A DNA stretch of 64,000 bases from Amoebophrya sp. A120 (taxonomy: Eukaryota > Protista > Dinoflagellata): contig CAJINV010000013.1 of assembly GCA_905178155.1 (NCBI GenBank), positions 238,344 through 302,343 of the forward strand, in the 5' to 3' direction. Every line of letters starts with the position of its first letter. Position 1 is the first letter of the stretch. The notes beneath the pieces were generated by a model. That model had not been told where the DNA came from and ran no database searches. It worked only from the letters and a program-made list of their open reading frames with translations. The position numbers were made by a program, and so were the translations under genes. Of the stretch, positions 25,401 through 55,074 are shown piece after piece.

Positions 25401-28400
25401 CCACCCGTCGGTGCTGCAGGTTTTGGCTTTGGTTTCGCCGGTGCTAGAAACTCTGGTCGGGAAACAGGTCCCGGGGGGAAGAGGCTCAACAAGCCCGATG
25501 AAGAACTCGCAGGAGGAACTGGTTGCTGCAAAGGAGCTGTTGTTCCAGCGTTCCCGCCCTGACCATCATTTCCTCGACCTGTTGGTGGACGACCGCTGGA
25601 GGTCCCTTTAGGTGAACCGCCGCCACCACCACCACCGCCTCCATCCCCGTTGAAGATTCTCGTCGGGACTAAAATGTTCGGCTTGTGCCCGCCGCCGAAG
25701 CCGCCAAACGGATAAGCATCACCGTCTCCTGAAGATCCCAGCTCTGCTTTCTGTTTGCTCCCCTCGCTCACGTTGCCCATATGAACTGCCAAGCCAGTAG
25801 CGCCCGCGAGGAGACAAACAGCGATGATGGTGATGATGATGGTTGAGAGCGATGAGGCCAGGAAAGCGGCGCAAGGAGATGATGCGGAAGATGTCGATGA
25901 TGAGGAGGGATCTGCTGTCATGGAATGAAATTTGTCTTCTTGAAACGGGTCCTCATTTTCGTCACGTGCAACACTTGGTGTCGTGTTTCGCTGCTCGTCC
26001 TCGTTGTCGAAAGTTTGTGTTGCAGAAGTTAGCGATGCTGTTGTGTTGTTTTCCGAAGCAAAACCTTCGGCAGCGGCTCCTTGCGCGACCTGCTGCTGTT
26101 GCGACATCAATGCCGCAGCTTTCTCAGCCTTTTCATCCATCTTCTCTTGCTCTTCCTCTGAGGATGATGCCAACTCTGGCTCGTGTTCTTCTGCTGCTTC
26201 ATTTCCAAGTCCAACCTCTCGGACGTTGACGCTTCTCATTTTCTTTTCTTCACTACCCGTCTCAAGCATTCCCTTCTCGATTTGCCCCGCCGTAGCGCCG
26301 CCGCGACCATCCTGGAAGTGTTCAAGTCCGTCCTGTCGTCGTGCCAATAGCTCCGCTTTCTCCGCGTCCGTAGCACCGAATGTCGAGTTGTAGGAATAGT
26401 TCATTTCTTGTTTCGCTAGCAGCGGTAACGACGTCTGCTCGATAAATTCTTCTTCGTGAATGTCCGACAGCCGATGGCCTTCCCATTTCGTCGCTTTTCC
26501 CTTCATGTCCTCTTCATTGACCAGATTTTTCGGCATTTTCAGCAGCTTTTGACTCTTCCGGGTCTTGGTGGTCCCTTGGCAGGGCTGCAAACTCGCATCA
26601 TTCTGCTCATTTCCCATTTCCAAATACTTCAACACCGTCTGCGCGTCCCACCGTCTTTCCCAACGCCACCGCAGTGTGACCTGCAGTAAAGACACCAGAT
26701 GGCCGAACAACTGCGCGTCTTGCTGCTCCCACCGCCGGGATTTCGAGTACAGAATCCGGACCCGGGAATCCGCCACGGCGAACTGCGCCCGCATCCCGCA
26801 CCCCTCTAAATGCTCGCACGGCGCTCGACCGTACAATAACTGGTAGAGGATGATCCCCAACGCCCAAACATCGGCAGCCGGTCGCATCTTCAAACTCGCC
26901 GATCCCTCATCCGGCTGGTAGAACGCCTCGGGCGGCATGTAGCGCGGCGTGCCGCACTGGCGATCCCGGGAGACGTGGGTGATTCCTTCATCTTTATTGA
27001 TGCCTCTCGCGAGGCCGAAATCAGAGACCTTCACGATGTTGTCCACGATGAGGAAATTCGCGGGTTTGAGATCAAAGTGGATCAACCCGAGGCTGTGAAT
27101 CGCCGCGACGCCCGCGACCATGTCGCGCCAGAGGTTGCGGATGTCGTAAATGGAGAAAATTTCGTAGTTTTTCCGGAGGAAGGAATGAAGATTGGGTATG
27201 GGAGGGGAAAGAAAGTGCTTCAGTTGCTGAACCAGTTCGAGTTGTAGTGCAGATGCGGTACAAAAATTGATAATTGAAAATTACATCCAGTTCCGCCTGC
27301 GGGTTCACTCGCATGAGAAATTAGGAGTAAGCTTCCCCCACTGCGTTTCATTCCGCATCACAAAAATACATATGATTCAAACAAACCAACACAAACAATT
27401 ACAATTCCCTCTCATACCACAGTCCGCGAATTCCAGCAAAATGTGGATCACCAGGTCTTTCGGAAAAAATTTCGCTTCCCCGATCATCTTCACTACCCGC
27501 AGCTCGTCTGCGTTGTGGCCAGCATTGCCATTGCGATTTTTATCCCGTAAAGCCCGCAGCCAGTTTACCTCCATGGCAAACGAACGCATTTGCCGCGCGT
27601 CCCGTGCGTACACGACTTTCAACGCGTATCGGGTGGCGAATAACTGAGAAGCGTTCATCTCCCTGTCGCGACCGTTGCCGCTGCTTCCAATGCCACCACT
27701 TCGCGACGCGTCACGATTGCAGCTATAATTGTTGCCACGACCACTTCCCGACGCCGTAGTACTTGAGCCTCCGTCTACCACACAAGTTCGCAAATCCACG
27801 CACTCAAACACTTCCGCGGATCCGCCCTTGCCGATCCGCTGCACAACTTCGAGCAATAAAGTCGGCTTGTTGAAGTCCACGTGATGGTTGTCAACCACCT
27901 CTTCGCCCATGCAGATGACCATGCCTGGGCCAACGCGGGCGGTGGCGGTCACGTTGATGTTTTTGCGCTGAATGAAGGCAAACGTGGAGAGTAGCGAATC
28001 GTTTTCTTGGTACGAAGTCCGGCAGTCCTCGTCGTTGAAATACTCGGGCAGGTCGCTTGGGGAGTTGAGAAAAGGGGCGCTGTGGCGCCCGTAGACGGGG
28101 ATGCTGGCCACGGAGGTGGAAAGAAGAGGCTCCGGAGATGAAAGATTCGCCACTTTATTTATTCCAGGACACACATCAGGGAGATTGTCGCTGGGTCCAC
28201 AATCATGATCCCGGGGGTCGTTGCCCATGTGGAGCTTGCCATTAGGCGAGGGAGAAGCGTCAATCTTTTCTGCGCGCCGGGGTGCAATCGGTGTGGAGTC
28301 CGGAACGACGGGGGCGTGGAGGGTTTCGGCCTTGTCGCTGCACCTCAATCCAGAGCTAGTAGTGTCGCGGGGATTTTTTCTCTTTGTTTGAAGACCATGC

Positions 28401-29575
28401 TGACCATACGCTTCTTTCTGGTGTCCGTCTTGGGCAACGGGCTCTCCTTGGGCTTCTTGCTGATTCTGGTGGAGCATTGGCTTCGCACCTCGCTGTTCTC
28501 GGTTGTATTCAGGGTCCTCAATCGTGAAACCCACTCCCTGCTTGCGGTCACCGTTTGATGTATCCACAACAGCCACCTTTGGCAGGTCCGCCTGGTAGAC
28601 AAAATCTTGGAGTCCTTGACGCTGGTCGTTCTCGACAGCATTTCGCTGATATCGTTCTTGCGGTGCCGGCGCTCCCGCTGTGCCATTTTCGCAGTCGGCA
28701 TTGCTATCGAAACTGGTTTCTCTGTTTTCCAGCCGCCCTCTGACACTGACTGTGCTGGAGTTGCGTTTTTTTTCGCGATAGGCGTCAGTAAGGCCTGCAA
28801 GGTCATTTCTCACCCTCGGAGCCGAGGAATAACAGCTCTCGGTTTCTCTGTTCGGATTGTAGCCCGTCGACGAAAAGTCGTCTCGTGTCGACGGCCGGAT
28901 ATCAACATGGCCGCGGCCGGGCCGCGCAGCGGCAGCCGCGTTCCTGCTTATCACATCGTCCTCAATCGTACTCGTCGCCGCCGGCCTCCTGGCGTCGTTT
29001 TGCTCCTGATAGTAGGAGCTTCCATGATTGCCGGCGGACAAGGTGGTGCTCACTTCTACGCCGTCGTAGGAGAAGGTCGCGTTTCGTTCACGACCGCGAG
29101 GGTCGCGTGGCACAAGAACATTTCCCCGTTCTTGTGGCAGATCGTCCTGCTCCTCCCGTGCACCTTGCCACTCGACGTAGGCAGCCTGTTCATCTCGAAC
29201 ACCTTCTCCTTGTCCTTGTTGTCCCACGCCGGCTCCTGCATGTGCATTTCTATTTCCGGTCTGTGCATGAAAAACTTTAGCCTCGAAGTCGAACGTGGTC
29301 GCAGTATGCAACGCCGACGTTGCTTGGGTGGGAACTGGGGCGACGGGTACGGGGTAGCTTGGGACATCGTGCTCTTCTTGGACGAAGCGCGCATTGTTCT
29401 TTTCGAAGCGTCTAATATTATTGCCTGGCTCTGCTAAGTCGCGGCCGGCGGCATTAGTAGCCCTACCCTGATCTGGATGGTCGTGAGGGTGAAAATTACG
29501 TCGGCCAGATGGAATCACGGGTCGTGGGGGATTGTCTTTGTGCTCAAAATGGTAGCTGTGCCGGTCGCCGCCCAT
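22467..29575 (-). CDS. Mps1/TTK-like protein kinase fused to a single TM helix, low-complexity stalk and C-terminal Cys/Trp domain (~2180 aa, 4 exons)
   Basis: Motifs IGKGGSAEVF, YALKVV, HFDLKPANFLIVD, DFGLA, QCGTPRYMPPEA, DVWALGIILYQLLYGRAP, which resemble TTK (IGSGGSSKVF, DLKPANFLIVD, YMPPEA). Introns: ~27193-27417 (non-canonical), 23416-23680 and 22901-22979 (GT-AG). TM segment LSTIIITIIAVCLLAGATGLAV. Confidence 0.85.
27193..27417 (-). other. Non-canonical 225-nt intron with terminal inverted repeats, splitting the kinase hinge
   Basis: Removal gives LLEFADC-D-LHSFLRKN (compare TTK ECG..DL); retention hits a stop. Minus-strand ends GTATGAGAGGGAA ... TTCCCCTCCCATACCCA are imperfectly complementary and there is no 3' AG. 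Confidence 0.8.
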
Positions 29576-29759
29576 AGGGTAAATTATCTAGAGGTCGTCG
29601 CACCACAGGAGGAGCAGTCACAGTCACTGGTTCGAGGTAATAAACAGGTGATACTGCTCCGCCTGTCGATATAGTAGTTGTCGCGCCGATATTTATTTAC
29701 AACTTGTTTTACTCGAAACAATGTAGTACCAAGAAACTCTTTATTCCGGGGAACAAGGG

Positions 29760-31760
29760 CCAATAATGCATGCGGCACAATCTGGACCTCATTCAGAAAG
29801 CTGCTCGTCCCTGATGCACTCTCCCACTTTTATTTGTGTCCTTCGGACCTCCACCAGGGATTACGAGCTTCTGAGGCTTTCAGAAACGTCGATAAACTTG
29901 CCCGTGCGAAAATCTTCTCTCGGGTTTGGCAGAAAAATGTCCATCCGTGTGCGTTCCACTGTGCAAAACTCCTGTCTAAAGATTAAAACTAGTCGCAGAA
30001 TTGTGTATAAAGTTCTAGTCGTGTGAAACTGAAACCGGTCGAAAGTGCTGTTACTTAGTTATCTACAAAAATATTCTTTTGCGACTCATGAAACTGGGAT
30101 ATGATAGTAACGTGCTGCCTTTGTGATTGACAATTCTCAGGAGCACTACATATGTTGACAGAAAAACTTCCAAGTGCCACCAGTCATCATACACTATACC
30201 AGAAACGTTGCCGTTCAAAGGCAGTTCCATAGAATCATCTAGGGGTATATCTATGTACTGAAAAAATGGTCGCCATATTACCGCGACTACAACTGCCCGT
30301 GCCTGAAGCGATGAAAAACGAATTTTTATCAAACGAGGAAATAAAGCGCATCACCAACAGCAGTGAGACGATGCCACGACGAGCGGCGATCTGAGACTGA
30401 CAAAACGACTTTGTCACGATTAGATTTTTATATGAGAGCGATTTCAATTTGAGTTTCGTTTGCGACAAGGAGCAGAGCATTACACCATCAAGCACTATTG
30501 AGTCGAACTGGCTTGTTCATGTGTAGTCGGTGAAAAGCAATGAATTTATTTCGATTTGCATCTACTGTGTTGAAGAAAGCCTCGCAGTAGTGCCATTTCT
30601 CTATTGTCTCAAGCGGCATTTCTACGACAGGATGAGCTGCCTCCAGCCGGTACTGCTGCACCATCTTAAAAATACTCAAGACCTTGGCTCTGATGGAATC
30701 GCACTGCCAGGTTAGCAGCCAGTTGCAATTCAGTGACACTTCTCAGTATAGCAAATGCAAGCCACAGACATAAGGTCCATTGCCCTGCATGCTGCAGAAT
30801 CGATTTTGAGGCTTGGTCAGCGAGTGCAGGGACGATATGATCGTTGGAGAACAGAAAAATCATTTATGAGCACAATGGATGATAATTATTTCTCTACCTG
30901 AAACCACCTGGGAGGGTAGTAAACAAGACCTCTAGAAGGGAGTTTTGGCATACACCAGAAGCCTCCGAATCGTATTTCCCGTCGTCTCCGCCTCTTGCGT
31001 ATTTTTCGCCAAACTAACTGCACGAGCCTCGGCTACTAGAAGTGCAACGCAACTTTCTCACTTTCGACAAAAGCGAGGTAGTCGCTCTGGAAGTTGCAAC
31101 TTTAACTCGTCAAACAGGTGCGACGCTGATAGTGCCTTGGTCGTGCTCCTCGTTCTCGTTGTTCTGGCTCTCGCACCATAAAATACCACAGTTGCTTTTC
31201 TGAAATCTCTTCCCGCTGCACTAAGGAATACTTTACTGGTGCATTTTTTTGTCATCGTGAAGGAGCGGTGAGGGAACCAAAAGTAGCGGTCCTTAGTCGA
31301 GCATCTTCCCAAGAGGACAGAGATCCTACCATAGCTAACATCCGGTGCCGCCAGATGCCTTGCAGCGTTGCAGAACAGCCAAAACAAGTCAAGCAGCATA
31401 TATTCATAAATATCTGGTGGTGCACCAACATCAACAAATCGATAAATTACAAAGATACAGTGAGTAAGAGTTGTACATTGTGTTGGATAGAAAAAACTTT
31501 CTGGGAATAATTTTTCCGGCAGTGTCGCAGGTAAAAATGTCGTCGTTACAAGGTGAGACGATGAAAACGAAGACTACTTCTTCTTCGTGAAGATAGTTGT
31601 AAGTGTTTCGGTTTCTGTTTTTGGATAAACTACTATCCGATCGTCCTTCTGCTGGTCGTGTGAAAAAGTACAGACTTCCGTTTCGCTTTCGATGCAAGTG
31701 CAACATACAATGCTTTGGTTGGACAGCTGATGACCTAACTACAACTTTTATTAGGTTCAA
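29760..31760 (-). CDS. Possible fragmented multi-exon hypothetical gene
   Basis: Several short minus-strand, protein-like ORFs (30063-30332, 30488-30739, 30666-30863, 31058-31399, 31431-31760) separated by AT-rich spacers. No domain recognised and junctions unresolved. Confidence 0.3.
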
Positions 31761-32008
31761 AATACTAAAAAAACTCCGCTTTCACGTCGTGATAAACTCA
31801 AATTGCAAATCCGTCGAAAAATGCATTTCCGGTCGTGTGAAACTAACAGGTAAAAGCTACGCCTCATATTTTTTGCTCGAACCAGATACAAGCACGGTGC
31901 TGGCATCCACCTCTTGTCGTGTGTCTACCGCTTGAGTAGTACCTTCCGTTTGGTTGTTCGCTTTATTCAATTTCTAGGTGTTTTGCTTCCGCCCGACGCT
32001 GACACCTT

Positions 32009-34135
32009 TCAGTCCCAAGAGTGGTCTCCCATCTTGACCCGCAGACGCTGTGCTATCGAGGTGTAAAGGAACTTCGAGTGGTCAAAGAAAATGTTTTTTT
32101 TGTAATTGCAAAATCAGAATTATAATGGTGCAGAAAGAACCTCGACCAAATACCGGTTTGCAGAACAATCTTCCAGCTGATCCTGCTAATCTGCATACTT
32201 CTTACAATTCCTTGTGATGCAAAGTTAATAGATGAAACTGTTCATCGCCGATATCATGCAAAATTTTGCAATACAAACTACCCCCATGACAACTTGACTC
32301 GAACTGGTCCCCGCAAAATTCCGGATAGCATCCCAGCCCTTAATCTTTCGGTCATCCAACTTGTCCACCAAATCCTGAGCCATAGACCTGAAAAGATAAA
32401 GAAGTACGTCTTGCATGTGTAGCATGACACACACTTCTGCGATCCATTTTATTCTGCATCACAAGTTTACAGTGAAACAGTTTTTTCTTGCGATAAAACT
32501 CCGAAATTATATCAAGTCGAATTCATCTCTATACCTGCTCTTGAACTCCAAAATGCCGCAGGCCGTGCCCTGGCGGTTGCGAAAGGTGCGGGCAAACGTC
32601 ACATCCATGTATCTGTCCCCGCCCACATGCTGCCTTCCCATTTCCTTCAACTAGAGTATGGAAATGAGAAATTTCTTGCTTCTCGAGCGCAGAATTTGTG
32701 AATTTGTGTTGCATAAAACCACAGTTGTAGAGAGTGAAGCTAGCGGTAGTGCCAATGTGGTTCTGCATCACAAACTCTCATTGATTCTACGATCAAGAGC
32801 TGGAAGTGTTCTTGAATCCCATATCGGTCCAGGTCATGTCGTTCGGAATTCCTTCCAACGTGATCTTGTAAGCGCCCTCCGACAACTCACCTAGAATTTC
32901 AATTTGTAATTATGCGGAGGGAAGCATAGTGGTTTAAATTTGTCCTCCTCGGAACAAACAAATTCGCGATTATCCCTCGTCATACAGATGAAAAACCTCA
33001 AGAACAATAAAAAGCACATTCGTACATAGTACCTTTGGCCCTCGAGATGCCCTTGCGGTCGCGGTCCTTCCCCCCGCTGTGCCGGCGGCCGCGGTCACGA
33101 GAGTCGTAGCGGCCCTTGCCCCTGCCGCGGTCCCGGGAGTCGTACCGGCGCTTGCCCTTGCCCTTGGAGCCCTTCTCTGCAGTGAACTGCACGGTGATCT
33201 TGTCGTCCTTGCGGAAGGGACGAGATTGATCCAGATCTTTGATAGCGTCCTGCGCACGGGTATGGAAAGGTTGAGAAAGACCAAAGTCGTTGTACTGAAC
33301 TCGCACTACAAAAAAATCAAGTCAGTCTTTTTGAAGAAAGGAATACACAATTTTTAGACTGAATACCAATACACTCTATTCCATACAAGTTGCTCCCCTG
33401 CAACACAAGTCTTTTCTATCAAAGGCTGATGAACCGCACTACTCTAGTAGTTGCAAAAATCATTCAACTTGTTGCCGTGCGAGTTCTAGTTCAGCATGAC
33501 TGTGACTCAATTTCTGTTTCGTAATCTCCACGATCGGTAAACTCGACGAAGCAAAACGGGGGGCCCTTGCGAACGTCGCTGTTCTTCATGCGCACGTCGA
33601 CGATCTGTGATATGGAGTTTTTGATATGGAAAGGAACCATGCATCTGAAATACAGTTTATCATGCACGGACTGCAATCACAGATTTTTTCCTGTTCTTGC
33701 ACCCACCATGATTTGTCTTTCGCATATTAGATGAGTTGTGAAAGTCCCAGACAAGTATCCCGCACTTCAACTTTGTCATGCGGCAGCGGGATAGCGGGCT
33801 CCTCCTTTTCTATTGCTAAAAAAGCCTTGTGTAGTCCAAAATACATCACTATACCTTTCCGAACTTGCTGAAAACGTCGCGCACGTCGTCCTCCCGCACG
33901 GATTCGGGCAAACCACCGACCCACAAAGTGGTGCCACCTATGGAATGCAAAAGCATCGCACTCGTATAAATGCATGACAAATTCCCTCAGCATGAGAAAT
34001 TAAATTTGTAGTGCGGATTTACATTGAGAACAGAATTTGTAATGCATGCCTGCGATTAGTACGAGTACGATAGTTTTGCACAGGATACCACCGTCGCCGC
34101 CACCATTGCCACCACGGGGGCGCTCGCGGGAGATA
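32009..34135 (-). CDS. SRSF1/SF2-ASF-like SR splicing factor (RRM + pseudo-RRM), at least 8 exons
   Basis: Spliced reading: GGDGG|TTLWVGGLPESVREDDVRDVFSKFGK|IVDVRMK..GPPFCFVEFTDRGD|AQDAIKDLD..ITVQF..RYDSRDRGRGKGRYDSRD..|..YKITLEGIPNDMTWT(E/D)|LKEMGR..DVTFA..GILEFKS|RSMAQDLVDKLD..|RLRVKMGDHSWD*. RNP2 and RNP1 and an SWQDLKD-like motif are present. Start codon unresolved. Confidence 0.85.
33939..34087. mobile_element. MITE-like introner, copy 1 (149 bp, TIRs, 5-bp TSD CCACC)
   Basis: TATGGAATGCAAAAGCATCGCACT...AGTACGATAGTTTTGCACAGGATA flanked by CCACC at 33934-33938 and 34088-34092. Removing it with one TSD restores the RRM frame. Homologous to 35779-35932. Confidence 0.9.
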
Positions 34136-34236
34136 GAGCAGCGTATCAACTGCAAAAATGTCTGGGTCTGGAAGATGTCATGCAGTTTTTGCATGACACA
34201 AAATGTCCTTAGATTGTCACTGTTAATGTGTGTCTG

Positions 34237-35345
34237 CCCGAAGTACTTGTCCCCATCCGCAAAAGTGTGCACCCCCTCGCCGTTGAACAGATCGTCCTGG
34301 AACTGTCCCTCGAAGGTGTCTCCGTTCGCACGGGTCTCGGTCCCGTGGCCGTTCTTATTACCCGCCTTCCACTCTCCTACGTATTTCGTACCGTCCGATA
34401 AAATCTCGGCTCCTTCTCCGTCTTTCTTATCGAACGACCACTGACCTTCGTACTCCAACCTGGTGGTGTGTTGGGTTTCATCGTTCTCGAGGAAAGTCCC
34501 TACTCCGTGCTGCTTGCCGGATTGCCATTCGCCGATGTATTGCGTGTTATTCCACCGGTAGAGAATTCCCGTACCGTGTCGCAGTCCATCGAGAAACTGT
34601 CCGGTCATACCGAGAGCCGGAATCCGTTCTCTCGGTCCCTTCGTTTGGACTGACATCCATTTTTTCGGTAGTTCAAGTTTTGGAAAGGAACAAAAGTCGG
34701 TGGTGCGATCTATACACTTGTTGAAGAACAATCTTTTGTATTTCAATAGTAGTGCAGCGGTGCAACCTGTTCTTGAACAAAACTCGTTGAACGAGAATAG
34801 ATAAGTACAACACTAGGCAGGGGTATACTTGTAATTCAACACATTTTTTCAAAGAAGATGCCAACAAATTTGCCTCTCTTGGAAAAAAAGGGAATATCTT
34901 GTTGTGCACCTTGACCTTTTCTATGTCTTTGTAAGCAAGATAGATTTGTATGCAGGGGAGAAAGTCTAAATCTAAATCGCCTCTACTTACTTGTTCCTGT
35001 TGTTTCGCGGAAAACCTCAAAAAACAATCGCTCAAATCACAATTCACAAATAGATACAATACTTGTTGATGTTACCGTATGCGCCGTAACTTCCTCGTTC
35101 GTTTGCTGCTGGCCTTACGGAAAAAAAAAAACGCTCTTATGGAAATTATGAAAACGCCTGCCCCTGCAGAAAAAAAATGGCAATGTGTCTGTTCGACTCT
35201 AAGCCTGAAAAAAACTACCGACGAGATTGCGACACGCACGATGCCAGGAAGACGAAGGGGACCTGATCGCCTATATTCTCGCGATAAATAATATAACATG
35301 ACACCGATGGACCGAAACCCTGCCCGATCCAGGGAGATAAGGCAT
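34237..35345 (-). CDS. MORN-repeat protein (4 exons; 3' end unresolved)
   Basis: Repeats YIGEWQSGKQHGVG, YEGQWSFDKKDGEG, YVGEWKAGNKNGHG, FEGQFQDDLFNGEG. Upstream exons 35345-35295, 35073-35058 and 34944-34898 join in frame only through non-canonical introns. Confidence 0.8.
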
Positions 35346-35551
35346 GAACATCGCGTGAACAACTGCAATGCTCTGACGCCGACACGGAATACGTGCTGTA
35401 TAGTAAGAATGCGAGTTGAAAGATGTCCGATTTCGACTTGTTGGAATCAAAAATGCAATCAACGCCAAACACGTTGACAAACACAAACAACCAGCTTATT
35501 AATTATTCGTGCGTCCACTGCTTCGAAGTTCATCAGAAACTTCGAAAAAAA

Positions 35552-38146
35552 TCATGTCCACGAGTGTGCTCGGATAAGTTTTTCCGCTCTCAAGCGATAG
35601 AATTTCCTGTAGGAATCAGTGATGTTTTCTTTTGATTTTCGGCCCGTCTCGAGCCAGTACCGGTTCATCATGTAGCTGTTCACGTGGTGTTCCCACAGCA
35701 GCTCCTGCGCTAGCACCGGCGTGGCTGGTTGACCCTCCGCGAGCGGATCGTGGTCCAAAATCGCGTCTATTACCGCATTATGAAATGCAAAAGCATCGCA
35801 CTACTTAGTATAAATCGCATGACAAATTTCCTCAGCATGAGAAATGAAATTTGTAATGCGGATTTGCCTTGGGAACAAGATTTGTAATGCAAGATTTGCA
35901 TTTATACGAGTACGATACTTTTGCACAGGATACGCATTCTCCACTTCAGTCGCGTCCACATCGAGTTTCAGGAGCGTGTACGAGGCCCGACTAGAGCTCG
36001 ACGGGCCGCCACGCAGTTGCCAAGTCTCTAGCCCAGCAGAGGAGTCTTGCCTTCTGCCTCCTCCCCGGTAGGGATGCTGCTGCCCTCTGGCTTGCAACAG
36101 GGAAGGGAGCCACTGATGTCTGCGCTCGGGAAACTGCGCAATCGGGTACTGGTGTAGCACAACCGAAGTGAGGCCGATGTCCATCCGATCGCGGAGGTGC
36201 GGTGGCAGACTTGAGAGAAAATCGTCTCGAAAGAGTTCTTTCATCTTTCCCCCAAGCAACCAAGGTTTTTTGTCGGATTTCTTATCGTTTTTCTTTTCCA
36301 CGCCTTCTCCGCCCCGCTGCGTTTTTATTCTGCCGATTTCGTGCGATTCTGGAAGAACAGAAGGAGTCGATGAGGCGAGAGGTGCTCTTTCGCGGTCAGA
36401 ATGCAACTCCGGCTCTATAATTTTCGCCGCTGCGGCATACGTGGCGTCGTGGTCACCGCAGCCGGGCTCCCAACCTTCCATGGCGTCAAATTCAAAATTC
36501 CCGCTCCGTTCCCAGGTGCTCGCCAGCGAGGCGAAAGTGCGAGAAACGTTGCCGGAGTACTGCCCAGCACCAAAGTCGAAATACAGTTTCAAACCAGCGG
36601 CCGCTGACGAGTTTTTTCGCGGGAGCAGGACGGAATCTGCAGTAACTGGCAAGACAAAACTCGGATCCTGGACGAAAAACGCCTCGGGGAACGAGGCGCT
36701 AGTAGGGTCCCCTTTTGTAGAAGAAATGTCAGTGTGTTTGGCAGCGGGTTCGACCATGCCGGCTGCTCCGCCTTTCTGGTAACTACTAGTCTCCGCATCT
36801 ATGCCTGCTTCTGTTTCACTCCCATCTTCGAAATTTGGCAAAAGACTTTCGCAGCCTGCCAATGGATGCCGCAAGTGGCCGATCAGCGGCTCGATGGGCT
36901 CTTTCCGGACAAAAGTGTATGAACCGACGGGCTGGCTCGAACCCGCTTTGCCCCAGCTCCGGTACGTGTACTCGAAGTGCGAAAAGACGGCGTTGTCATA
37001 GTGCATGTGATGGACAGTGCGGCGAGCCGCAGGACGTTGTCGCCGTGCCACATGTGTTTTCAATTCTCGAGGAAGATTCCGTCGAAGCCGAAACCTGAAG
37101 GGATTGAAGTAGTAGCCGGGCCGTGGGACGACTTCTTCTTGGCCATTTTTATCACTATCCGGCGCAGTAGATGCGACTACAGAATCCGTAGCCGTGGTGC
37201 CTCGATTGATCTTCTTTTCCTCAGCAGGCGCTCCTTCGATGAAGCACCACCCGTCGACTAATGTGCTGCTCTTGATCAACTTGGTCTCGCTCCCGCCAGG
37301 AGTTTTGCCAGCTGCCGAAAGAACTGTGAGGGCATTGTGTGCATAATGGGGCCCTGCACTTTTAACAGGCTCGGATGCTGCGGCTTCCCCATTTTCCTCC
37401 GCATTCTCGTGGTAGAACGCAACTTCTTTTGCGGCATTCGCCACAACTGCGGCGGCATCTGTACCCAGGAGCTGCTGGCTCTCACGCGAAAGGGATGACA
37501 GCACTGCAGCTGCCTCAACAAGCTCGTCTTCGCTCGTCGTGATGAAAAAAGTGTCCTCACGGTGCCGCTCATACTCGCAGCCCGTCATCACAAGAAAATG
37601 CGCAAGCTCATGCCGGTGCTCGGGTGCAAGGACGGCATCGCAAATTCCCCGACTTCTTTCCAGCTCTGCGATTTCTCGCAGCCACTTGTCCTCCCATGCA
37701 GAACTCGTATACTTTGCGTTGTGGAGGAAAAAAGTTAAACTTTCCTTCGTTGCGTCCGAGACTGGCGCGCTGGTGGTGCTGAAATCTGTAGTGCCCCATC
37801 TCGTACTTTCACGCTTCCCATGCCGCGAAAATAGACTCGCAGGAACACGTAACTCGTGCTGCGGAAGCCGCTGCCGGTAGCAGTCCGGTAAAGCGAGGTC
37901 GGAATGCATCTGCGCGGCTTGTTTTATCGATTTCCGACTGGCTTTCTTGCTATGCAGGAGCTCCTCGCGAACTCGTTTTAGGCGATCTCGGCCTGTCTGA
38001 TGTCCGTAGTGCCACCGCACTCGCTCGGGGTGGTTCTCGCTCGGGCATAGGTCTGCAACTACGCCAGATTCTGGATCATGCGGGAATTTCAGCGCTGCTG
38101 CAGTGCCACTCGTCGCGCTTCGAGGAAGCTGCTTCATGTGCCGCAT
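35552..38146 (-). CDS. FkbM-like class I SAM-dependent methyltransferase domain protein
   Basis: Motifs IEPLIGHLRHP, LYFDFGAG, MEGWEP, LLKLDVDATEVENA|VIDAIL, ELLWEHHV, SYRKFYRLRAEKLIRAHSW. The last exon 35552-35774 is joined by removing introner copy 2. Confidence 0.65.
35779..35932. mobile_element. MITE-like introner, copy 2 (154 bp, TIRs, 5-bp TSD CGCAT)
   Basis: TATGAAATGCAAAAGCATCGCACT...AGTACGATACTTTTGCACAGGATA flanked by CGCAT at 35774-35778 and 35933-35937. Contains an in-frame stop; removing 159 nt restores EVENA|VIDAIL. Confidence 0.9.
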
Positions 38147-38421
38147 CGCTTGCGCTCGACGGCAAAAGTCCGAGCTCCGTGAACTACACCACTTGCGAGA
38201 CTATCCTTGATTCCATACCACATCGCGCGCACAAGTTCCGATCGATTGAGATCTTTGCTGCATGAACAAAAAAATCCAAAATCAATGGCACAAACTCAAT
38301 ATACCCCAACGAAAATTCATCAGAAACCGTAGAAGCAAAAACCCGCACGAGCGTAGCCTGTTTCTTACAGAAATCACACGCAAACCATCACTCGTCCACG
38401 GAGCCCGTCCCTACAGCAGTT

Positions 38422-39567
38422 TCATAATGCAAAGTCCAGGATGAAGACTCGCCGGGTTTTGCGGATTTTTCGCGGAAACACGTGCATGTGCGCACCGTGC
38501 AGCATGTTGGTGTCGAAAATGAATCCTCCGTACTTTTTTCCCGTCATCAGCACAGTGTCTTCCTTTCCCAAAGCGGCTTCCACTTCCCCGTCCGCAAGGT
38601 TTTTCAGATAGCCCGCGTTGCCGAAAGTGTGAGTCGCGGGAAACCAGTCCAGCCGGTGTGATCCCCGCAACAGCTTCGTCGGCCGACTGGTGAGCGGGAC
38701 ATCCTCCAGGTAGATGAAGGCCTTCAGCCGGCGGCCGCACCCGTCGTGGTGCCAGACCCCGTTGTTGTAGTCGGAGGGCTCCCAATCCTCTTTCAGCTCG
38801 TGGCACTGGATTCCGTGGTAGGAAACATCCACATCGCCGACATACCCGTGCACCAGCTTGCGCAGCAGGGACGTGGGCTGCGCCAACAACTGGTTTACCA
38901 GGTAGCGGTGCGGCAGGATGCCGGAAATGTGCCGGGCCGTGGCGTTCGAAGTAGAAGAAGGGGCGGACGAACTTGGTGTTTTCCTCCGCACACCTGCAGC
39001 GTCCTGCCCGTGCGAAGACCTGTCTGCCCCATCGTCCCTGCATTTCGAGTTTTCTTTTCGGCTTGACGTTCTCAGAATGGAAAATGTGCAAACTTTGCTC
39101 ATCCACTGACGATGCTGACATTGCCAGATTAACAACAAACCGAAAATAAACATGTAGTGCTCACACGGCGATGGAATGCTTATTCTACAGAAAACCGCGC
39201 TTGGATCATGCATTATGCTACTTGATAAAATTTCCCGACAGCAAAGCGATTCCTTTATACACCGATAAGGGGCCGCAGTTTCAGCCGTGGCACTGCTCAG
39301 GTCACCCGATCGCCCGGAAGAGTCCTCGCGTCCTGGGGGTGGCTCTGCCAACAAAGAGGCTGCGTCTACTCCGTCCGGCCACGGCAGGGAGTCCCAGTGC
39401 TCGATTTGTAGGAAGCCCTCCCGGCGAAACTGGCGAATCATGGACTGCTCCGTTGGGGATACACTGGCCCAGAAACCGCTGTCGTGCGCAAAGCCCGGAA
39501 ACCAGGCGAGCTGGTCAACTGCGAAGGTGAAACGGTTGATGCGACTCCGAAAGAAAACATCCTGCAC
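38422..39567 (-). CDS. Phytanoyl-CoA dioxygenase (PhyH)-like Fe(II)/2-oxoglutarate oxygenase
   Basis: QFRREGFLQI, WHHD (HxD), AFIYLEDV, PTKLLRGSH, FIFDTNMLHGA (distal His), RRVFIL. The ORF probably contains in-frame introns around 39070-39260. Confidence 0.8.
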   Translation of the reverse strand: MQDVFFRSRINRFTFAVDQLAWFPGFAHDSGFWASVSPTEQSMIRQFRREGFLQIEHWDSLPWPDGVDAASLLAEPPPGREDSSGRSGDLSSATAETAAPYRCIKESLCCREILSSSIMHDPSAVFCRISIPSPCEHYMFIFGLLLIWQCQHRQWMSKVCTFSILRTSSRKENSKCRDDGADRSSHGQDAAGVRRKTPSSSAPSSTSNATARHISGILPHRYLVNQLLAQPTSLLRKLVHGYVGDVDVSYHGIQCHELKEDWEPSDYNNGVWHHDGCGRRLKAFIYLEDVPLTSRPTKLLRGSHRLDWFPATHTFGNAGYLKNLADGEVEAALGKEDTVLMTGKKYGGFIFDTNMLHGAHMHVFPRKIRKTRRVFILDFAL

Positions 39568-39731
39568 GTGCCGGAACAGGGCCTGTGCCTGCAGGAAGAG
39601 CGAAGTGGTATTTCTTTGAGGTACTCCTGTAGCTGCTGGCTACACCAAGATCGGGCGACCTTATTGACTCGGCTGGAAGGCGGCTGGAGGCTGAGTTTTG
39701 CTCCACTTCTTGGTCCTGCAGGTTGCTTCCG

Positions 39732-42341
39732 ACGTCGAAAATTCTTGTTTCATCCGGTTCGTCAAGACAGGAAGATCGAAAAACATCAGTATTGCATTTT
39801 GAAGTAAACAAAACTAACTACTACTTGTACTTGACTGCTAAAGCTATAACGGAACTCATTTTTGCCTTGCGATCTTGAATTTTGGAACCTGCAAACGGTT
39901 TTAGAGACAGGAGATTGAAAGTAGGAACGCAGCATAGAAAGCGAGCAGGAGAGAGAAGAAATCAGAACAAGAAGAAGAGGGGAGAGCAAAGATTTCGTTG
40001 TTAGTTTCTTGCGGTCTGCTGGTAGTGAACGTCTTCACCAACGCCTTAAGCACCGGCCTAAACCTACACCCCGTTTGCCGACAGGGTGCAGATCGATCAT
40101 GATCCGCGGCTCCAGCCATGCATAAATCTTCGCTGAGAGATCAAGAGCCTAAAGATGCTAATGCTTGCGCAAGCACCTATCTCTCAGAAGTGGAGCACTC
40201 TCTCATGCATATCTCTCATGCGTACTATCTCTCATGGATGAATGCGCATCGTCATTGTCTCTCAGAGCTAGAATCGCACTGCTCTTTGAGCAGAAAGCAT
40301 GGGAAAATCTCTCAAAAATGAAAAATGAAATGGAAGTGAAATAAGTGACACACTCAGATGTAGAAACGAATGCACCGCTCAAATGGGATGCACTTCGTGC
40401 ACGAACAGACTTTTTACTTTGCATTCCATAAAATGTCTATTAAGAGAGCTGCCTCTATCTTGTAGCCATGAGTCAGCCCTGGGATGGAGGACAGGGCTGG
40501 CGGCGTATGGAATTAGGAGCGAAAGGAAGCATCTTGCCCGCCTTTGGCGTGACCCTCCCAGATACCAGAAACACTAGCCCGCCTTTGGCGTGACCGTGTG
40601 AAGGAGAGAGGTAGCATCTTGCCCGCCTTTGGCGTGACCCGGTTCTTCAAACGTCGAAAATTCTTGTTTCATCCGGTTCGTCAAGACAGGAAGATGATAA
40701 CAACGCTTACAACAGTGAAAAACGCTTTCGCTTTCAAAATTTAAATTTTTTTGAGGCCCCTTTGCAGCATCCGGCCCGACTGTCCTCATCCGCGTCGCCC
40801 GACTTAGCGGCCCCACAAGCGGCTCCGGATTCTCCGACCTATTAGCTCCTTCTTTTTGAGATGTAGCTTGATAGTGACGAATGAGAATGCGAGTGAAAGT
40901 ATGTAGCTTGTCGCGGTGATCGCTAGCGCAAAGTAGATAGCATGTGAGACGTTTTGTGACAGATGTGCTCTTCCGCGGGCGATGTGCTTTTCCGCAAAGC
41001 GCTCTCCGTCAATGACGGCGCAGCTGAAATGCCGCGCGTGTTCGTCTTGTCGTCGGACCAGGCCGATTGCGAGATGCGCTCTGCCTGGTCGATCGCACAT
41101 GAACTAGCAGCGGCTCCACAATTTGGAATGCACCACAGGGACAGTGGGCACGCCAACAAGGGCCGCAAGTGGTCCCAACTCGCACAAGATCTGCGGATTT
41201 TGACCGGGGGCAAAATAAGCCGCAAATCCTTGCGGGGCGGACTGGATCGCGCTGCCAAGCGCCTGGCAGCCGCAAAGCAGGACAGCAAGCCCTTCAAATA
41301 CGAAGACAGATGCGACCGCGAGACGGGCTGCAAAACGCAGAACATGTTGGAGCAAGGTACTGGGGCGCGGCTTAGTGAGTGCTTTTCACTAGTGTGAGGA
41401 GCGGGGGCGTTGGGTCTCCGACAGTGATCATCTCGACCTTCCGGAGGCCCAAATAATCTCTGCTCTGGGTGTGCCCTTGACCCTAGTTTATGCCCCCCCC
41501 CTTGAATGCATTTTTTTGAGGCCCAAAAATCGCGAAAGCATTTTGTACAGGAACTAAAAAACGCTTTCACTCGATTTCTATACCCCTTCTTATGTTTGGC
41601 CAAAGCCTTTCATATGACCGTCACAAATCGTCACGGGTTTGAGCCTTCTGATGGTCAAGGTTTGGCCATGTCCTCGACTCAGGTTATCACAATGCTGAAA
41701 AATTTCTCTCCAGGTACAAAGATAGTGAACCTCGGTTCCCATTTTGGCCCAAGTAACAGTGGGTAGGCCGCCTGCGCCCTCAAACCCAGGGCGCCGGGGC
41801 CAGGAGTCTTCTTGGCAATGTCTGTGGCCTCGGGCCCGGTGCTTATTTATTTAGGGGGCTAGTGGAGGGGTTGTCGTGGTATTTTGAGCTGGGGGCCTGT
41901 TTGGGCGAAGTGCTTGCATCTGGGTGATATTTCTACACAATTATGGCAAAAACAGACGTGCTCTGGCCCACTCGGATCAACCGAAGGACAAGCATACTAC
42001 TTGCCGTCGTTCCAGTGGGAGAACCGAGGGCGGGGCTGGACGTGACCGATCGCCAGCCGTGGCGTTTCGGACTGGCGCCCAAAATGCCGCTCAAGGCGAT
42101 ACACAGCTCCGGACCCGCAGCACTCCGGGCAATGGATTATGCAAAAAACGTCCTCAAATGCGGGCACAAATTTACGCTACCTATCACCGCGACAAGCTAG
42201 CTTAATAATATTACTACTTAAGTGACATCATCAACATACTCCAGTAATTCAGGTAGCGAAAAAAGGTCCCGCGACTCACCTGCCCGGCACCTTGTTTCGT
42301 CCGGTTCCGGTTCGTCAAGACAGGAAGACGATAACAACGCT
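39732..42341. repeat. Three dispersed copies of a ~45-bp coding segment (39732-39776, 40651-40707, 42291-42341)
   Basis: CTTGTTTCRTCCGGTTCGTCAAGACAGGAAGA is seen three times (the third copy carries a 6-nt duplication) and encodes SSCLDEPDETR on the minus strand. Confidence 0.85.
41739..41753 (+). other. Dinoflagellate spliced-leader relic-like 15-mer
   Basis: CCATTTTGGCCCAAG matches the 3' 15 nt of DinoSL (CCATTTTGGCTCAAG) at 14 of 15 positions. Confidence 0.45.
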
Positions 42342-42703
42342 ACGCCCACCTCTGCCAAGGCCGACGCTGCGGGTCTACTAGTAGCGCTCCTGCAACTAGC
42401 TCTCCACCCGGAGAACAAGTCCATGCCAAGTCGTCCACGCCGTACGATGCCCAATTTCTGCAGAGTGCGCTTCTGTGCGTACTCGGGTCCAAATTTGCGA
42501 AGAACGTTCTGGCTGAGCAAGTGCTGCTCCCGTGAAGCGTGCTCCCTCGCACCTTTCGATGCGAACGCCGGGTTGTAAAAGTCGTCGTTTCCAGCACGAG
42601 AAAGCTCCAGCTGCACGTCGCCACGGTTTCCGCTCGTTAGCGTGGCCAGAACGAGTAGAGAAACAACCACGAGGCCTTTCGAAATGCGCAGAGTCGCGTG
42701 CAT
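42218..42703 (-). CDS. Signal-peptide-bearing exon, possibly the 5' part of the PhyH-like gene
   Basis: MHATLRISKGLVVVSLLVLATLTSG (signal-like); shares the SSCLDEPDETR segment with ORF 39515-39811. Confidence 0.5.
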   Translation of the reverse strand: MHATLRISKGLVVVSLLVLATLTSGNRGDVQLELSRAGNDDFYNPAFASKGAREHASREQHLLSQNVLRKFGPEYAQKRTLQKLGIVRRGRLGMDLFSGWRASCRSATSRPAASALAEVGVALLSSSCLDEPEPDETRCRAGESRDLFSLPELLEYVDDVT

Positions 42704-44470
42704 TTTCTTGCAGTATGTGTATGTCTCCGCTGACCGCCGTGCAGAGCGTTCCAAAAGCGGGAAGTAGCTTCGCGTGCTTTCCCTGCCGAACGAAATTCCG
42801 TAGCGCGAAGAGTCGCCTCCTGCACTCTCGGAAAAGAAATGACTTTACTTCGGGATTGCGACAAAACTGTCTCTGCGTCTCCACATGCCGCAAGAGAACT
42901 CAACTCTGATCTTGCAGTCCCCGCGAAAAGGTTTTAGTATCAACAAAATGTGATAAATTATCGATCTTCATCACTTTGTCTATCTTTGTATTGTTTGCTG
43001 GAACGAACACCATTACGAGCTGCGGGCTCCTCAAAGATCCTAAGTACCTGTGTCTGACGAGGCATTTCTTACGGTTGGCTGGCAAAGGCCTAGCGACGTA
43101 CTTCGAATGAAATTTGGAATGAGTAGTTCGTCTTCTTGTGCTACCGCAACTACGACATTGCTTGGTGTATTGCGAGGCACGACAAAAATGGTAGCTGCTG
43201 CAAGAAGCAATTAGACACTTGTTCTTTCCACCACGAGACAATGTTGATTGTGCGTCTAGGAGAATGGGAGATGCTACACAAGGTTTTCTCTACTTCTATC
43301 TAGACAATTGCTTCGTAATCCGATCCAAGGAAGGAAAACTCGAAGCGACTGAGTCCCCGACAACCGCGCGCAGCGCGTTGGAGGATTTTTGGAACCTTTT
43401 CATGCATCTTTATCTTTCGATCGAAGGTTTCCTTTCCCATTAGTCCCTTCGCTTCCAGGACGACGGCGGCACTTCTGCCATTTGTGTTCTTCCCTCATCT
43501 GCCCTGCGGCTTCGCATCCCGTGCCTGTCAGCATCTCTGTCTTTGCGCCAATCGTGGTCATCGTCAGCATGCGTTTCGAAATTGTATTGGTGCATCGACC
43601 TGTATCGGTGTATGTTTTTTTATTTAATAGAGCGCACAAGGATAGTACCCATGAAATCTGCGCTGGTTCTATACTGATCACGAACCCGCACCAGTGTCTC
43701 TTCCACATTTACGCTTTGCATTCTAGTCGTGACGAATGCATAGCAAAAGTCTTCATCAATGTGGTCGCGATAGCAGAGAAAGTACTACCTCGCCTCGATT
43801 TCCCACAGGAGCACAATAAAACATTACGTGTTCATCATCCTTCCACTTTCGCTGCTGTCGTCGCTTTTTTTCCTCCGACCGCGGTTCTGTACAATTCTCC
43901 GCATATTATACTGCTGCTCGTGGTTGCCGGAGACTGCACGGCCCTCCGTCTTTTCCCTCCTTCCGAGGTCGTTTCTTTTCGCTCTTCTATCAGAGAGTTT
44001 GCGGGCCTTCGCCGGAGACCGGGAAGTGCGTTCTGGAGACCTGCGTGTCAGTTACAGTATGGCAAATCTCCAGGCGGGCAACTTATGTATGCTATTTTTA
44101 GTTGTTTTTACTCATGCCTATTCGTACATTCTTCGGCGTGAGGTGGAGCAAGACGCTGCCCGACTAGAAAACGCAAGTACTGCGTTCTTGACGAATTATC
44201 GTCGTCGGAGCTACTTGAGTCGGCCGAGGAAGAAGAGGAGGAGGAGCTGCTGGACTCGGAGCCTGCTGATCCCAGCGAGCCGCCAAACGGCCTCGGGGGC
44301 AGTCCAGATGAGCAAACGGAAGCTGAGGCTGAACTCTCTTCGTCGGAGCTGTTTTTTATTTTTGAGAAACAAATGACTTTCCACGATCATTGTCTTCGCA
44401 GATGCACCCTGGCATCGTGTTTGCACTGCAAGGCAGATCAGCAGAAGAAGGACGTGCTTCGACACAGGGA

Positions 44471-46069
44471 CTACCTGCTGCTCTCGTGGGCTGTCTGTTT
44501 TGTGGCAAAAGCTTGACCCCATTGCGGGCGGTGTCCTCCCTTATTCATCTCGGGATTTGCCTTGCGGTCGTTACTTGTGGTTGGCTCGTTTGGTGATTGG
44601 AAGCTAGACGTCGTGGCAGCTCCCTGATACCTGTCTTGGGCGACCGGTGCGGGACCACGATAATTGGCAGAACTACAAGAGGGGGGACAAATCTCCGATG
44701 CGCGACCCTGGCGATTCGCATCCTGCTGAGCCGGCTCCTCACTTGCCACTGCTGTAGCAGAAGACGAGGCGTTCTCTCCCGTAGAATTTCCGGCTCCTCT
44801 TCGGCCACTGACAGCCCCCGTCGACGGTCCCCAACACTGCAGGCCCCGCGTAAGCCGTGGGTCCAGGCCCGGTTTCTTTGGTTCCGTGCGGACCCGAGGG
44901 TGCTCCTCGTCCCACTGCTCTGTGATCTGGTAGCACTGGCGCCAGGTGAAGTTTGAAGTTGCCAACGCGGCGCGCAGTTCGCGGCTGCTCTTGTCCCGGA
45001 AAAACCCGGCCCACTCTGCCACTACCCTGTCGGGAGTCGATTCCTTCCATTTCTTGGCGTTTTTCGTCGGCGCTGCACTTGGCTGCCACAAGTGCGACCA
45101 CGATTGTTCATTTACCTCGCAGTTATCAGAATGATCGTCAGTCTTCTTGGAGGACGCACCCAAGGCCACTGGAGCTTCACCCGAAGCGCGCGCTTCTTGC
45201 AAATCGATGCGATTTTGCTCCGCAGTCGAATTTGCGGGACAAGTGCGGGGAGCTTCAGATACTTCGTAGCTGCTCGGCTTGCTGTAGTAGTAACTCCAAT
45301 TTTTATCATCTGCTTCGGCCGAAGAAAACCTGTCTTCCTGCGCCGGCGGGATCGCGCTGCCGCTCACGGAGACCGGTTGCTCTGGAGGGCTTTGCTCTAT
45401 TCCCTGATTTCTCGAAGCTGCATGTTTTTTTCTGCTGTCCGCGTTGCGAAGCACTTGCGCCAAGGTGTCGGCAGTCACAAGCTGCGAAAATTTTTCGATA
45501 TCAAGACCGGCGCAGGCGAGGAAGGTCATAAAGTGCCGCCCGATGACCTCACGAATAGTCTCGTCGAGCGCCGGGTCGCCTTCGGCAACGCAGTACCGTT
45601 ATCACATAGGAAAAAGCAAGCGCGTCACAAGAATAGTACGCAATATGCAAAGGCCAACATGCCTGATACTAAAACTGCAGGAGATCATCCTCTACATACT
45701 ATATAGCACTTGTGTCGTGCTGGTCGACCTTGTTTTCCTCGAGGGCCTTCATGTGGATACTACTTATTAGTTCTGCATGTCCAAACAGGCTGTGGCTGTT
45801 GCTTTCTCTTTTTGCCACAGGATAAGAGCATGTGAAAAACTCGGCGAGCGAAGGACCCCCTCTCCGCCGCGTTGCTTAAAACCATCCGAAATTCGATCGG
45901 ACTGGTAGCCGCCGAGGGCTTGGTGGGCAGTTGAAACAACCAGATTGACGGGTAGGCCACGTCCGCTGCACGAGATTGTTGATTCCTGTGGGTGAGAAAG
46001 TTGATCAGTGCAACAAGAACAAGATCGAGCGAGGCAAAATATTTTGTGCCAAAGTTGGGTTGCTCTCAC
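44471..46069 (-). CDS. Multi-exon hypothetical protein (probably extends further in both directions)
   Basis: ORF 44471-45529 extends upstream through introns 45596-45704 and 45761-45825, giving ..SFSHA-R-IHMKALEENKVDQHDTSA|YCVAEGDPALDETIREVIGRHFMTF.. Confidence 0.55.
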
Positions 46070-46261: not shown

Positions 46262-46815
46262 CCACCATTTGGTCCACCAGCGTCAGGTCGCAACACCCCG
46301 CTGCAATTGTTCGGAGCCGGAGGCTCGAACTGCGACATATGATATAGAAAGCTTCACCGCTGGAGGTGGAAAATTTCAAAACACATCAAGAGAACGAACT
46401 CATTGGTTGAATACGGGAACTTATCGTGAAAAACAAAAAATACTGAGGCTGTGGCGCCTTCGTCCATGACATTTTCTACTGCTCCGGGGCAAGAAAATCA
46501 CCTAACAACTTGGTCTGTTTGCGATCAGTCATGTTCTTGCCCGCTTAAACAGTACGAGAACGGTCAGACAACGAATGAGCTTGGATCTTGGATATCTGCG
46601 ATCAGTTTTTTATGCATCGAGCAGCAGCAATGTGAATTCTTCTCTACTTGCAACAGGATCATGAGATCAATCAGCGGTCCGTCTCTGAAAACCACCAGGC
46701 TGCGACACTTTTCTTTGTTCCACGACCACCTTCTGACGATGATAAACCAGAAACCGTCTGTTGAACAAACGATTTCCACAAGACAACTAATCTCACAAAA
46801 TTTTGTTTGTTTTTA
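46262..46815 (+). repeat. ~550-bp dispersed direct repeat, copy A
   Basis: CCACCAGCGTCAGGTCGCAACACCCCGCTGC...CACCAGGCTGCGACACTTT..CAAGACAA aligns with 49948-50530 and 55075-55613, with substitutions and short indels. Confidence 0.9.
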
Positions 46816-49947: not shown

Positions 49948-50530
49948 CACCACTTGGCCCACCAGCGTCAGGTCGCAACACCCCGCTGCAATTGTTCGGA
50001 GGCTCGAACTGCGACATATGATATAGAAAGCAAAGCTTCACCGCTGGAGGTGGAAAATTTCAAAACACATCAAGAGAACGAACTCAATCTCAATGGTTGA
50101 ATGCGGCAACTTATCGCGAAAATAAAACAAAAAGCACTGAGGTGGTTGCGCACCATTATGCGGTAGCCTTCCATGACATTTTCTACTGCTATAGGGCAAG
50201 AAAATCACTTAGCAACTTGGTCTGCTCGCGATCAATCATGCTCGTGCCCGCTTAAACAATACGAGAACGGTCAAACAACGGATGAGCTTGGATCTTGGCT
50301 ATCTGCGATCAATTTTTTAGTATGCATCGAGCAGCAGCAGTGTGAGTTCTTCTCTACTTGCAACAGGATCACGAGATCAATCAGCGGCCCGTCTCTGAAA
50401 ACCACCAGGCTGCGACACTTTTGCTCCACACCGACAGCCACCTGCTGACGAAGATAAAACAGAAGCCGTCGCTTGAACGAACGATGTCCGCAAGACAATT
50501 TCACAAATAAACTTTGATTGTTTATTTTAT
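49948..50530 (+). repeat. ~580-bp dispersed direct repeat, copy B (flank of copia insertion)
   Basis: Homologous to 46262-46815; homology ends just before TGTTGG at 50535. Confidence 0.9.
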
Positions 50531-55071: not shown

Positions 55072-55073
55072 TT

Positions 55074-55074
55074 N
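55074..55074. other. Single-N assembly gap / contig join
   Basis: n at 55074; the sequence after it restarts at the equivalent of ~49992. Confidence 0.95.

Follow-up and report, generated by a model that had tools for sequence, protein, structure and literature searches.

A probable fixed cutting register in the transposon-derived, non-canonical introns of the dinoflagellate Amoebophrya sp. A120

The subject of this work is the non-canonical introns of Amoebophrya sp. A120, analysed in a stretch of 64,000 nucleotides (contig CAJINV010000013.1 of assembly GCA_905178155.1, positions 238,344 to 302,343 of the forward strand), hereafter the window, and in L008, a locus of a sister lineage. These introns are terminal-inverted-repeat elements that begin with TAT, end with ATA and carry a 5-bp target duplication, i.e., they are the introners of Farhat 2021 (PMC7789003). 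Wherever the cut could be pinned, the non-GT-AG introns of this origin are very probably cut one base 5' of TAT and four bases 3' of ATA (register +1/-4), giving introns of the form N-TAY...ATA-NNNN.

Joints of the window were taken from two transcript-like contig sets and two raw runs (26.9-46.8 kb), those of L008 from four aligned runs. One protein of the L008 lineage, aligned with that of A120 over 799 columns, shows 26 mismatches (about 96% amino acid identity). The ten joints listed for the window comprise two repeat-copy artefacts, three joints that are GT-AG only and five that fit the rule; 15 of the 77 joints of L008 were listed, namely two artefacts, three GT-AG joints and ten rule-fitting ones (nine recognised by script, one by hand owing to a substituted letter). 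The artefacts (33987>35830 and 35868>34035; in L008 2586>4649 and 7332>8930) were excluded before counting. Among the 21 intron joints, 15 fit N-TAY...ATA-NNNN and six are plain GT-AG; a GT/GC-AG register is absent in 14 of the 15. A random skip of 100-400 nucleotides in the region 26.9-46.8 kb would fit with a probability of 1.7e-4 without sliding and of 6.7e-4 with two slides. The sample is small; the joints stem mostly from a single sample and from contigs, not reads, of runs that are only guessed to be RNA, and the raw 2026 runs X9 and X10 have cover restricted to the repeat 34144-34176. Heavy carry-over of DNA into the contigs is unlikely, since the contig sets leave 38.2-39.5 kb and 42.2-46.8 kb without any cover. 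As the rule was derived from introns of an SR gene and a protein kinase gene of the window, the independent tests are those in L008.

The pattern had been proposed in a first-pass annotation, made from the letters of the window, that listed eleven introns on the minus strand. All eleven intervals have TAY at +2..+4 and ATA at -7..-5. Five of them are skipped in the transcript-like contigs, at registers that include the proposed ones, and a sixth, in the kinase gene, is supported by homology; as introns, three others are contradicted and two need merging. Its statement that canonical GT-AG introns coexist in the same genes is confirmed by GT-AG joints in the same contigs.

In a scan that required TAY and RTA ends, 299 of 553 inverted-repeat candidates had a perfect 5-bp repeat at their borders; perfect repeats of other lengths were few (11 of 3, 6 of 4 and 2 of 6 bp). 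The offsets of one and four nucleotides thus add up to the target duplication, just as the first-pass annotation had supposed when it linked these introns to a transposon and to the Amoebophrya introners. Candidates with at most two mismatches (395) end in TAT..ATA (375), TAC..GTA (12), TAT..GTA (4) or TAC..ATA (4), and of 277 candidates with a 5-bp repeat from a scan blind to the end letters, 221 have TAT..ATA. The family of the intron 33935-34088, to which 35775-35933 also belongs (85% identity over 117 nucleotides), occupies at least 130 stretches in one metagenome assembly of the sister lineage scanned with its 5' end. Both ends could be located in 116 copies, of which 98 carry a perfect 5-bp duplication and 113 end in ATA. 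The pattern TAT-N7-AAA occurs 20 times in the window (6.1 expected), the elements 33939-34087 and 35779-35932 included. Membership among the introners is apparent from a public A120 host gene model (P0003), terminal inverted repeats, direct repeats at the borders, numerous copies and removal from mRNA as seen in the contigs. In L008 an 820-nucleotide intron of the TAT...ATA, 5-bp type (6180-6999) is skipped in all four runs, therefore the rule is not restricted to short elements. Another complete TAT...ATA element, with a 4-of-5 duplication, lies at 3955-4190 of the window.

Since one plus four equals five, a +1/-4 cut restores the message exactly as it was before insertion, at any target and in either orientation (orientation being assigned with a codon model). 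Among 176 coding-like elements to which this model was applied, no bias was seen at intron positions +1 and -4..-1; 42 members of the family face one way and 21 the other. A stop-codon test of orientation was indecisive (37 vs 30 of 105, controls 28 and 28).

An introner becomes informative for the register only if its duplication has decayed, as it has in five introns of the window. With the duplication written X1-X5 on both sides, a +1/-4 cut retains X1-X4 of the left copy and X5 of the right one. The left X4 is retained in five of five and the right X5 in four of four informative introns (four and three from RNA, and one each from homology of the kinase intron), and only the +1/-4 cut satisfies all of them. 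Both predictions for base 5 made in advance, for L008 7908-8062 and 8885-9152, came true; the decayed intron L008 792-1045, found in the contigs without prediction, also fits, and L008 1934-2091, for which base 4 had been predicted, is not among the joints listed. Homologues of topoisomerase II offered no decayed junction usable for this purpose. As to which duplicate drifts, a test of AT bias agreed with the prediction at base 5 in six of seven cases and gave no signal at bases 1-4 (13 vs 11).

The most instructive intron is 32050-32328 of the SR gene, whose joint is the only one in the window that cannot slide and which fixes the +1/-4 register alone: of 17 registers tried, only register 0 reproduces the protein P0003. 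Its GC-AG alternative was rejected because it spans 277 nucleotides and the observed skip 279. An antisense GT-AG reading was rejected as well, because the gene runs on the minus strand and such a reading is seen at none of the other non-canonical joints. P0003 reads from MORN repeats through into an SR-type protein with two RRM-like domains, and the four SR junctions of the first-pass annotation encode it exactly. The SR joints are seen in a deep contig with 5-8% differing letters, which are explained by the paralogous SR gene P0001; the junction residues are identical in P0001 and P0003. The young SR intron 33935-34088 has the intact duplication GGTGG and an alternative GT-AG reading at 33938-34091. 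In the kinase gene the duplication of the intron 27193-27417 has fully decayed and the inverted ends are residual. Contig depth there is about 1 and no joint is listed, the support being homology: only register 0 of 13 gives the aspartate in LEFADCDL, to be compared with LEYAECDF of the homologue P0004. A search limited to 2,000 amino acids did not find the window's own kinase model.

The SR gene in P0003 is a 5'-truncated duplicate of P0001. The 5' exon(s) present in P0001 are missing, and an orphan 3' half of an element at 34140-34207, from a family with further copies in the sister-lineage loci, links the gene in frame with the MORN repeats; this junction looks like a duplication broken inside an introner. 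The transcript of P0001 has an exon start at 34139, four nucleotides past the orphan ATA, in agreement with the loose contig end at 34137 (determined by hand and not counted above). The 5' half of another TAT...ATA element lies at 32408-32495 (minus strand), inside the canonical intron 32388-32534, and the joint of that intron uses its GT-AG ends, not the lone TAT end of the enclosed half-element.

Table 1. Introns and associated features of the window
Feature	Coordinates	Strand	Basis
Coding span of P0003, public A120 model	32009..34656	-	exact match of spliced chain; Pfam MORN, RRM_1
Non-canonical intron CT..AC	32050..32328	-	joint 32049>32329, slide 0
Canonical GT-AG intron, donor GTAT	32388..32534	-	contig joint
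Non-canonical intron AT..CT	32653..32824	-	joint 32651>32824, two equivalent registers (+1/-4 or 0/-5)
Canonical GT-AG intron, donor GTAC	32891..33032	-	contig joint
Non-canonical intron TT..CG, TAC for TAT	33257..33524	-	joint 33255>33524, two equivalent registers
Canonical GT-AG intron, donor GTAT	33605..33854	-	contig joint
Young introner, element 33939-34087 (TAT...ATA)	33935..34088	-	joint slidable by 5 (six registers)
Orphan 3' end of another element family, ATA at 34144	34140..34207	-	loose contig ends 34137, 34144
Non-canonical intron GT..CA, protein kinase gene	27193..27417	-	homology to P0004; Pkinase match downstream
Three proposed MORN introns (35074-35294, 34945-35057, 34735-34897)	34735..35294	-	unsupported
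Young introner, element 35779-35932, duplication ATGCG	35775..35933	-	joint slidable by 6 (seven registers)
Predicted single 230-nt non-canonical intron TT..GG	45596..45825	-	frame length, inverted ends; no RNA cover
Predicted canonical GT-AG intron of the 44-46 kb gene, donor GTAA	45986..46186	-	gene model; no RNA cover

Concerning the machinery we can only infer, and the balance tilts slightly towards transposon copies being cut at +1/-4 by an ordinary spliceosome of the U2 type that has become less strict about the terminal bases. All six RNA-supported canonical donors are GTAT or GTAC, vs 113 of 1,058 background GT, and N-TAY can therefore be considered as the local canonical donor GTAY minus its G; the first-pass annotation had noted the coexisting canonical introns, not this identity. 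Thus TAY at +2..+4 is common to both intron classes, while the GT/GC-AG ends of U2-type introns are absent from 14 of the 15 rule-fitting joints. In Table S4 of Farhat 2021 (PMC7789003) T occupies +2 in each of the nine leading non-canonical pairs of A120, while +1 may be G, C, A or T; the nine leading pairs of strain A25, whose repeats start with TTA, all begin with TT; sliding by the aligner may have shaped this table. According to the same study, 83 of 89 spliceosomal proteins were found in A120 and U1 small nuclear RNA (snRNA) was undetected (PMC7789003).

Under this mechanism the 5' site would be read as N-U-A-Y, i.e., the local canonical G-U-A-Y with position +1 freed. The terminal hairpin would bring the ends together early and would so substitute for the undetected U1 snRNA. 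The 3' site would be set by the distance from ATA and not by AG, and one adenosine of ATA may be the branch point. After insertion the five duplicated bases that fall within the intron (+1 and -4..-1) would drift freely, from which the seemingly random terminal dinucleotides would result. The second splicing step involves a contact between G+1 and G-1, and their joint loss is therefore coherent. Base 4 of the duplication seems to be mismatched synonymously more often than the other bases (about 7 of 11, among 40 mismatched elements inspected by eye in model-predicted frames), possibly a constraint on intron base -1.

The idea that canonical acceptors share T-6/A-5 with ATA-N4 was rejected for want of enrichment. 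A 3' pyrimidine run as U2AF tract was set aside; in the kinase intron and in 32653-32824 this run pairs with the purine-rich 5' arm. The introns are not of the U12 type, which has the donor RTATCCTT, an AC or AG acceptor and U11/U12 snRNAs. One of the families starts with N-TATCCTG, but positions from +5 onward vary among families and the ends are free. Minor snRNAs were not found in A120 (Farhat 2021, PMC7789003).

Several observations weigh against the fixed register or its assignment to the spliceosome. ATA at -7..-5 is absent in the six canonical acceptors, and T-6/A-5 is not enriched in 84 predicted ones, so that canonical introns do not share the 3' signal. A stem over +2..+4 would need unwinding before catalysis. 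No lariat, branch point or snRNA was observed, and no raw reads span the introns. A search for enrichment of the motif among 139 predicted gaps that lack inverted repeats gave a null result (74 vs 50-73 in controls), the windows used being too wide. In L008 an empty site of the A120 lineage would look like a skip, and single-letter calls may be strain differences. The SR contig comes from the paralogue, whose intron letters were not observed, and so the tolerance of TAC in 33257-33524 is not strictly demonstrated. Finally, published annotations of A120 families contain mixed ends and duplication lengths of 2-5 (Dataset S2, PMC12130899; 21 of 58 rows), which we tentatively attribute to sliding.

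The strongest competitor, though a clearly less probable one than the relaxed spliceosome, keeps the +1/-4 register and hands the cut to a dedicated or non-spliceosomal machinery that measures from a hairpin closed by TAT and ATA, with overhangs of one and four nucleotides, as proposed for Euglena. Closure of such a stem, suggested already in the first-pass annotation, is predicted (pairing of the terminal triplets with P>0.5) in 132 of 171 elements and in four of five decayed introns; three of these four beat all 40 shuffles, and in the kinase intron the pairing reaches 0.997, attained by none of 40 shuffles. No closure is predicted for the TAC intron 33257-33524 (pairing 0.003), yet its junction is present in the contig and in P0003. 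A dedicated machinery would also agree with a symmetric, orientation-independent signal, with canonical acceptors that are without ATA, with the comparable Euglena code N3CDG...CH'GN5-6|R (PMC12501133) and with the association of TAC and GTA (12 of the 16 TAC cases among 395 elements), but the latter covariation may reflect one transposon family at the DNA level. Mismatches of G-U over A-C are not in excess at element positions 1-15 (71 vs 59), and selection on RNA pairing is therefore not shown; the excess at positions 16-25 (94 vs 60) is largely due to a single position and to copies that are related. Furthermore, only about half of the pairs form at positions 4-7, and position 4 is C or G at both ends without correlation (45 CG, 42 GC, 43 CC, 32 GG). 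The donor is also identical with the canonical GTAY, and T occupies +2 in both strains despite the different starts of their repeats, which speaks for the U2-type spliceosome.

It is improbable that the cut varies within the duplication and that the single register is an effect of small samples. A published figure legend calls the borders variable (Farhat 2021, PMC7789003), the ends given per family in Dataset S2 (PMC12130899) are mixed as said above, and 10 of the 15 rule-fitting joints slide by 4-7 bases or depend on one letter. Against this, all nine informative comparisons agree on the cut with no exception among the joints listed, and in 40 mismatched elements the +1/-4 cut never produces a stop, which a cut after base 0 or 1 does in two. 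Less credible still is a DNA-level origin of the skips in empty alleles, paralogues or strain differences: the runs are 'RNA?' contigs, the SR contig derives from a paralogue and L008 from a sister lineage, but the same contigs skip GT-AG introns precisely, the joint at 35775 sits in a contig that matches the window letter for letter, conserved RRM and kinase motifs are interrupted by the introns, and 66,565 read-supported introns, 65% of them non-canonical, were reported for A120 (Farhat 2021, PMC7789003).

Further introns proposed in the first-pass annotation fared differently. The rule had been used there to build an in-phase exon chain through the MORN gene, a region that a contig of 1,276 nucleotides (34147-35422) with no difference to the window crosses without a gap, and hence the three MORN introns are not supported. 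These intervals lie upstream of the start of P0003 (34656), and their predicted end pairing is at most 0.09, with no closing stem. Near 34605 (34600-34660, minus strand) the upstream ATG frame MDVSPNEG...SRYD is one base off GQFLDG...; the letters are confirmed in contigs identical to the window, and this MORN copy may be degenerate. The joint of 35775-35933 likewise occurs in a contig identical to the window; for the 'methyltransferase' label of its gene, the exon tested gave no Pfam match. From the ATG at 46338, the two introns listed at 45.6-45.8 kb (45761-45825 and 45596-45704) leave a frame of 107 amino acids, vs 478 if a single intron is assumed, and in this gene model they are better read as one, 45596-45825. 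This predicted intron combines the outer donor and acceptor of the former two, obeys the rule and has a duplex of -16.7 kcal/mol and a decayed duplication.

Elsewhere, the window contains a GC-rich (about 68%) tandem array at about 4480-8260 with units of several hundred bases, and Rfam gave no match in the array or in the window as a whole. On the plus strand at about 50500-60700 two tandem copies resembling long-terminal-repeat retrotransposons were recognised by eye from gag, integrase and reverse-transcriptase-like frames. The 44-46 kb gene has its first codons and the region before them in triplicate (46270-46790, 49960-50500 and 55080-55620), and two of these adjoin the retroelement copies. 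An A120 introner family with Copia-like open reading frames inside its inverted repeats was described (PMC12130899), a possible source of 5-bp duplications.

Among known systems the closest is that of the A120 introners themselves. Farhat 2021 (PMC7789003) described for the same organism repeats of TAT, seven variable bases and AAA, direct repeats at the borders and coexistence with GT-AG introns. The direct repeats were given there as 3-5 nucleotides with no clear end signature and the borders as 'variable' or 'unknown', in contrast to the 5-bp duplication, the fixed +1/-4 register and the donor GTAY minus its G seen here. The nonconventional introns of Euglena (Nomura 2025, PMC12501133; PMC11282704) are alike in having triplets at fixed distances inside free ends (in A120 predicted to pair in most elements), slidable direct repeats that mask the code, a proposed origin from miniature inverted-repeat transposable elements and coexistence with GT-AG introns, and their code was also found by discarding slidable introns (PMC12501133). 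They differ in the motifs CDG and CH'G at 3 and 5-6 nucleotides and in an exon that starts with a purine, whereas A120 has TAY and ATA at 1 and 4 nucleotides without such a bias; the Euglena motif is also unlike the canonical donor, and circular excision was reported (PMC12501133, PMC11282704). Because motif and spacing differ, the A120 introns are not members of the Euglena class.

In Fritillaria borealis (PMC13326754, PMC11282704) introns derived from transposons, with inverted repeats and target duplications, are handled by a conserved U2 spliceosome, and an adaptation of this machinery is therefore possible in principle. The ends preferred there are AG-AC and AG-AT, U1 is conserved and U2AF duplicated, whereas A120 prefers no dinucleotide and its U1 is undetected. 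Introners whose splice sites are co-opted from the target duplication (Gozashti 2025, PMC12130899) are similarly non-autonomous elements with terminal inverted repeats and intron ends within the duplication. They normally need GT/GC or AG in target or element; those of A120 need neither and tolerate any 5-bp target. In Amoebophrya ex Karlodinium most introns are GT-AG and there is a U1 snRNA (PMC12005148), therefore the trait is confined within the genus; the available part of PMC12621601 makes no mention of Amoebophrya. The intron class itself is thus already known and the precise code of its cut probably unreported. We did not find the fixed register in the published texts as far as available, but the figures of Farhat 2021 (Fig. 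3, S19-S25), Roy 2023 and the other 37 of the 58 A120 rows of Dataset S2 could contain it.

Farhat 2021 (PMC7789003), in the parts available, leaves open how the non-canonical introns of A120 are recognised. With a fixed N-TAY...ATA-N4 code this question becomes testable for the roughly 65% of its introns that are non-canonical, and gene finders obtain a usable rule. The offsets of one and four nucleotides add up to the 5-bp duplication, which accounts for the harmlessness of these transposons whatever their target. If the spliceosome makes the cut, it works without G+1, A-2 and G-1, which are otherwise nearly universal; if not, a second splicing system exists. We put forward only as a tentative and rather doubtful proposal that A120 has a second splicing code that disregards all terminal bases: one and four nucleotides are measured outward from a hairpin closed by TAT and ATA, and insertions of the transposons with 5-bp duplications are erased from the message at any target and in either orientation. 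If true, it would represent an independent origin, in alveolates, of Euglena-like splicing without lariats and would explain the origin of about two thirds of the introns of this genome.

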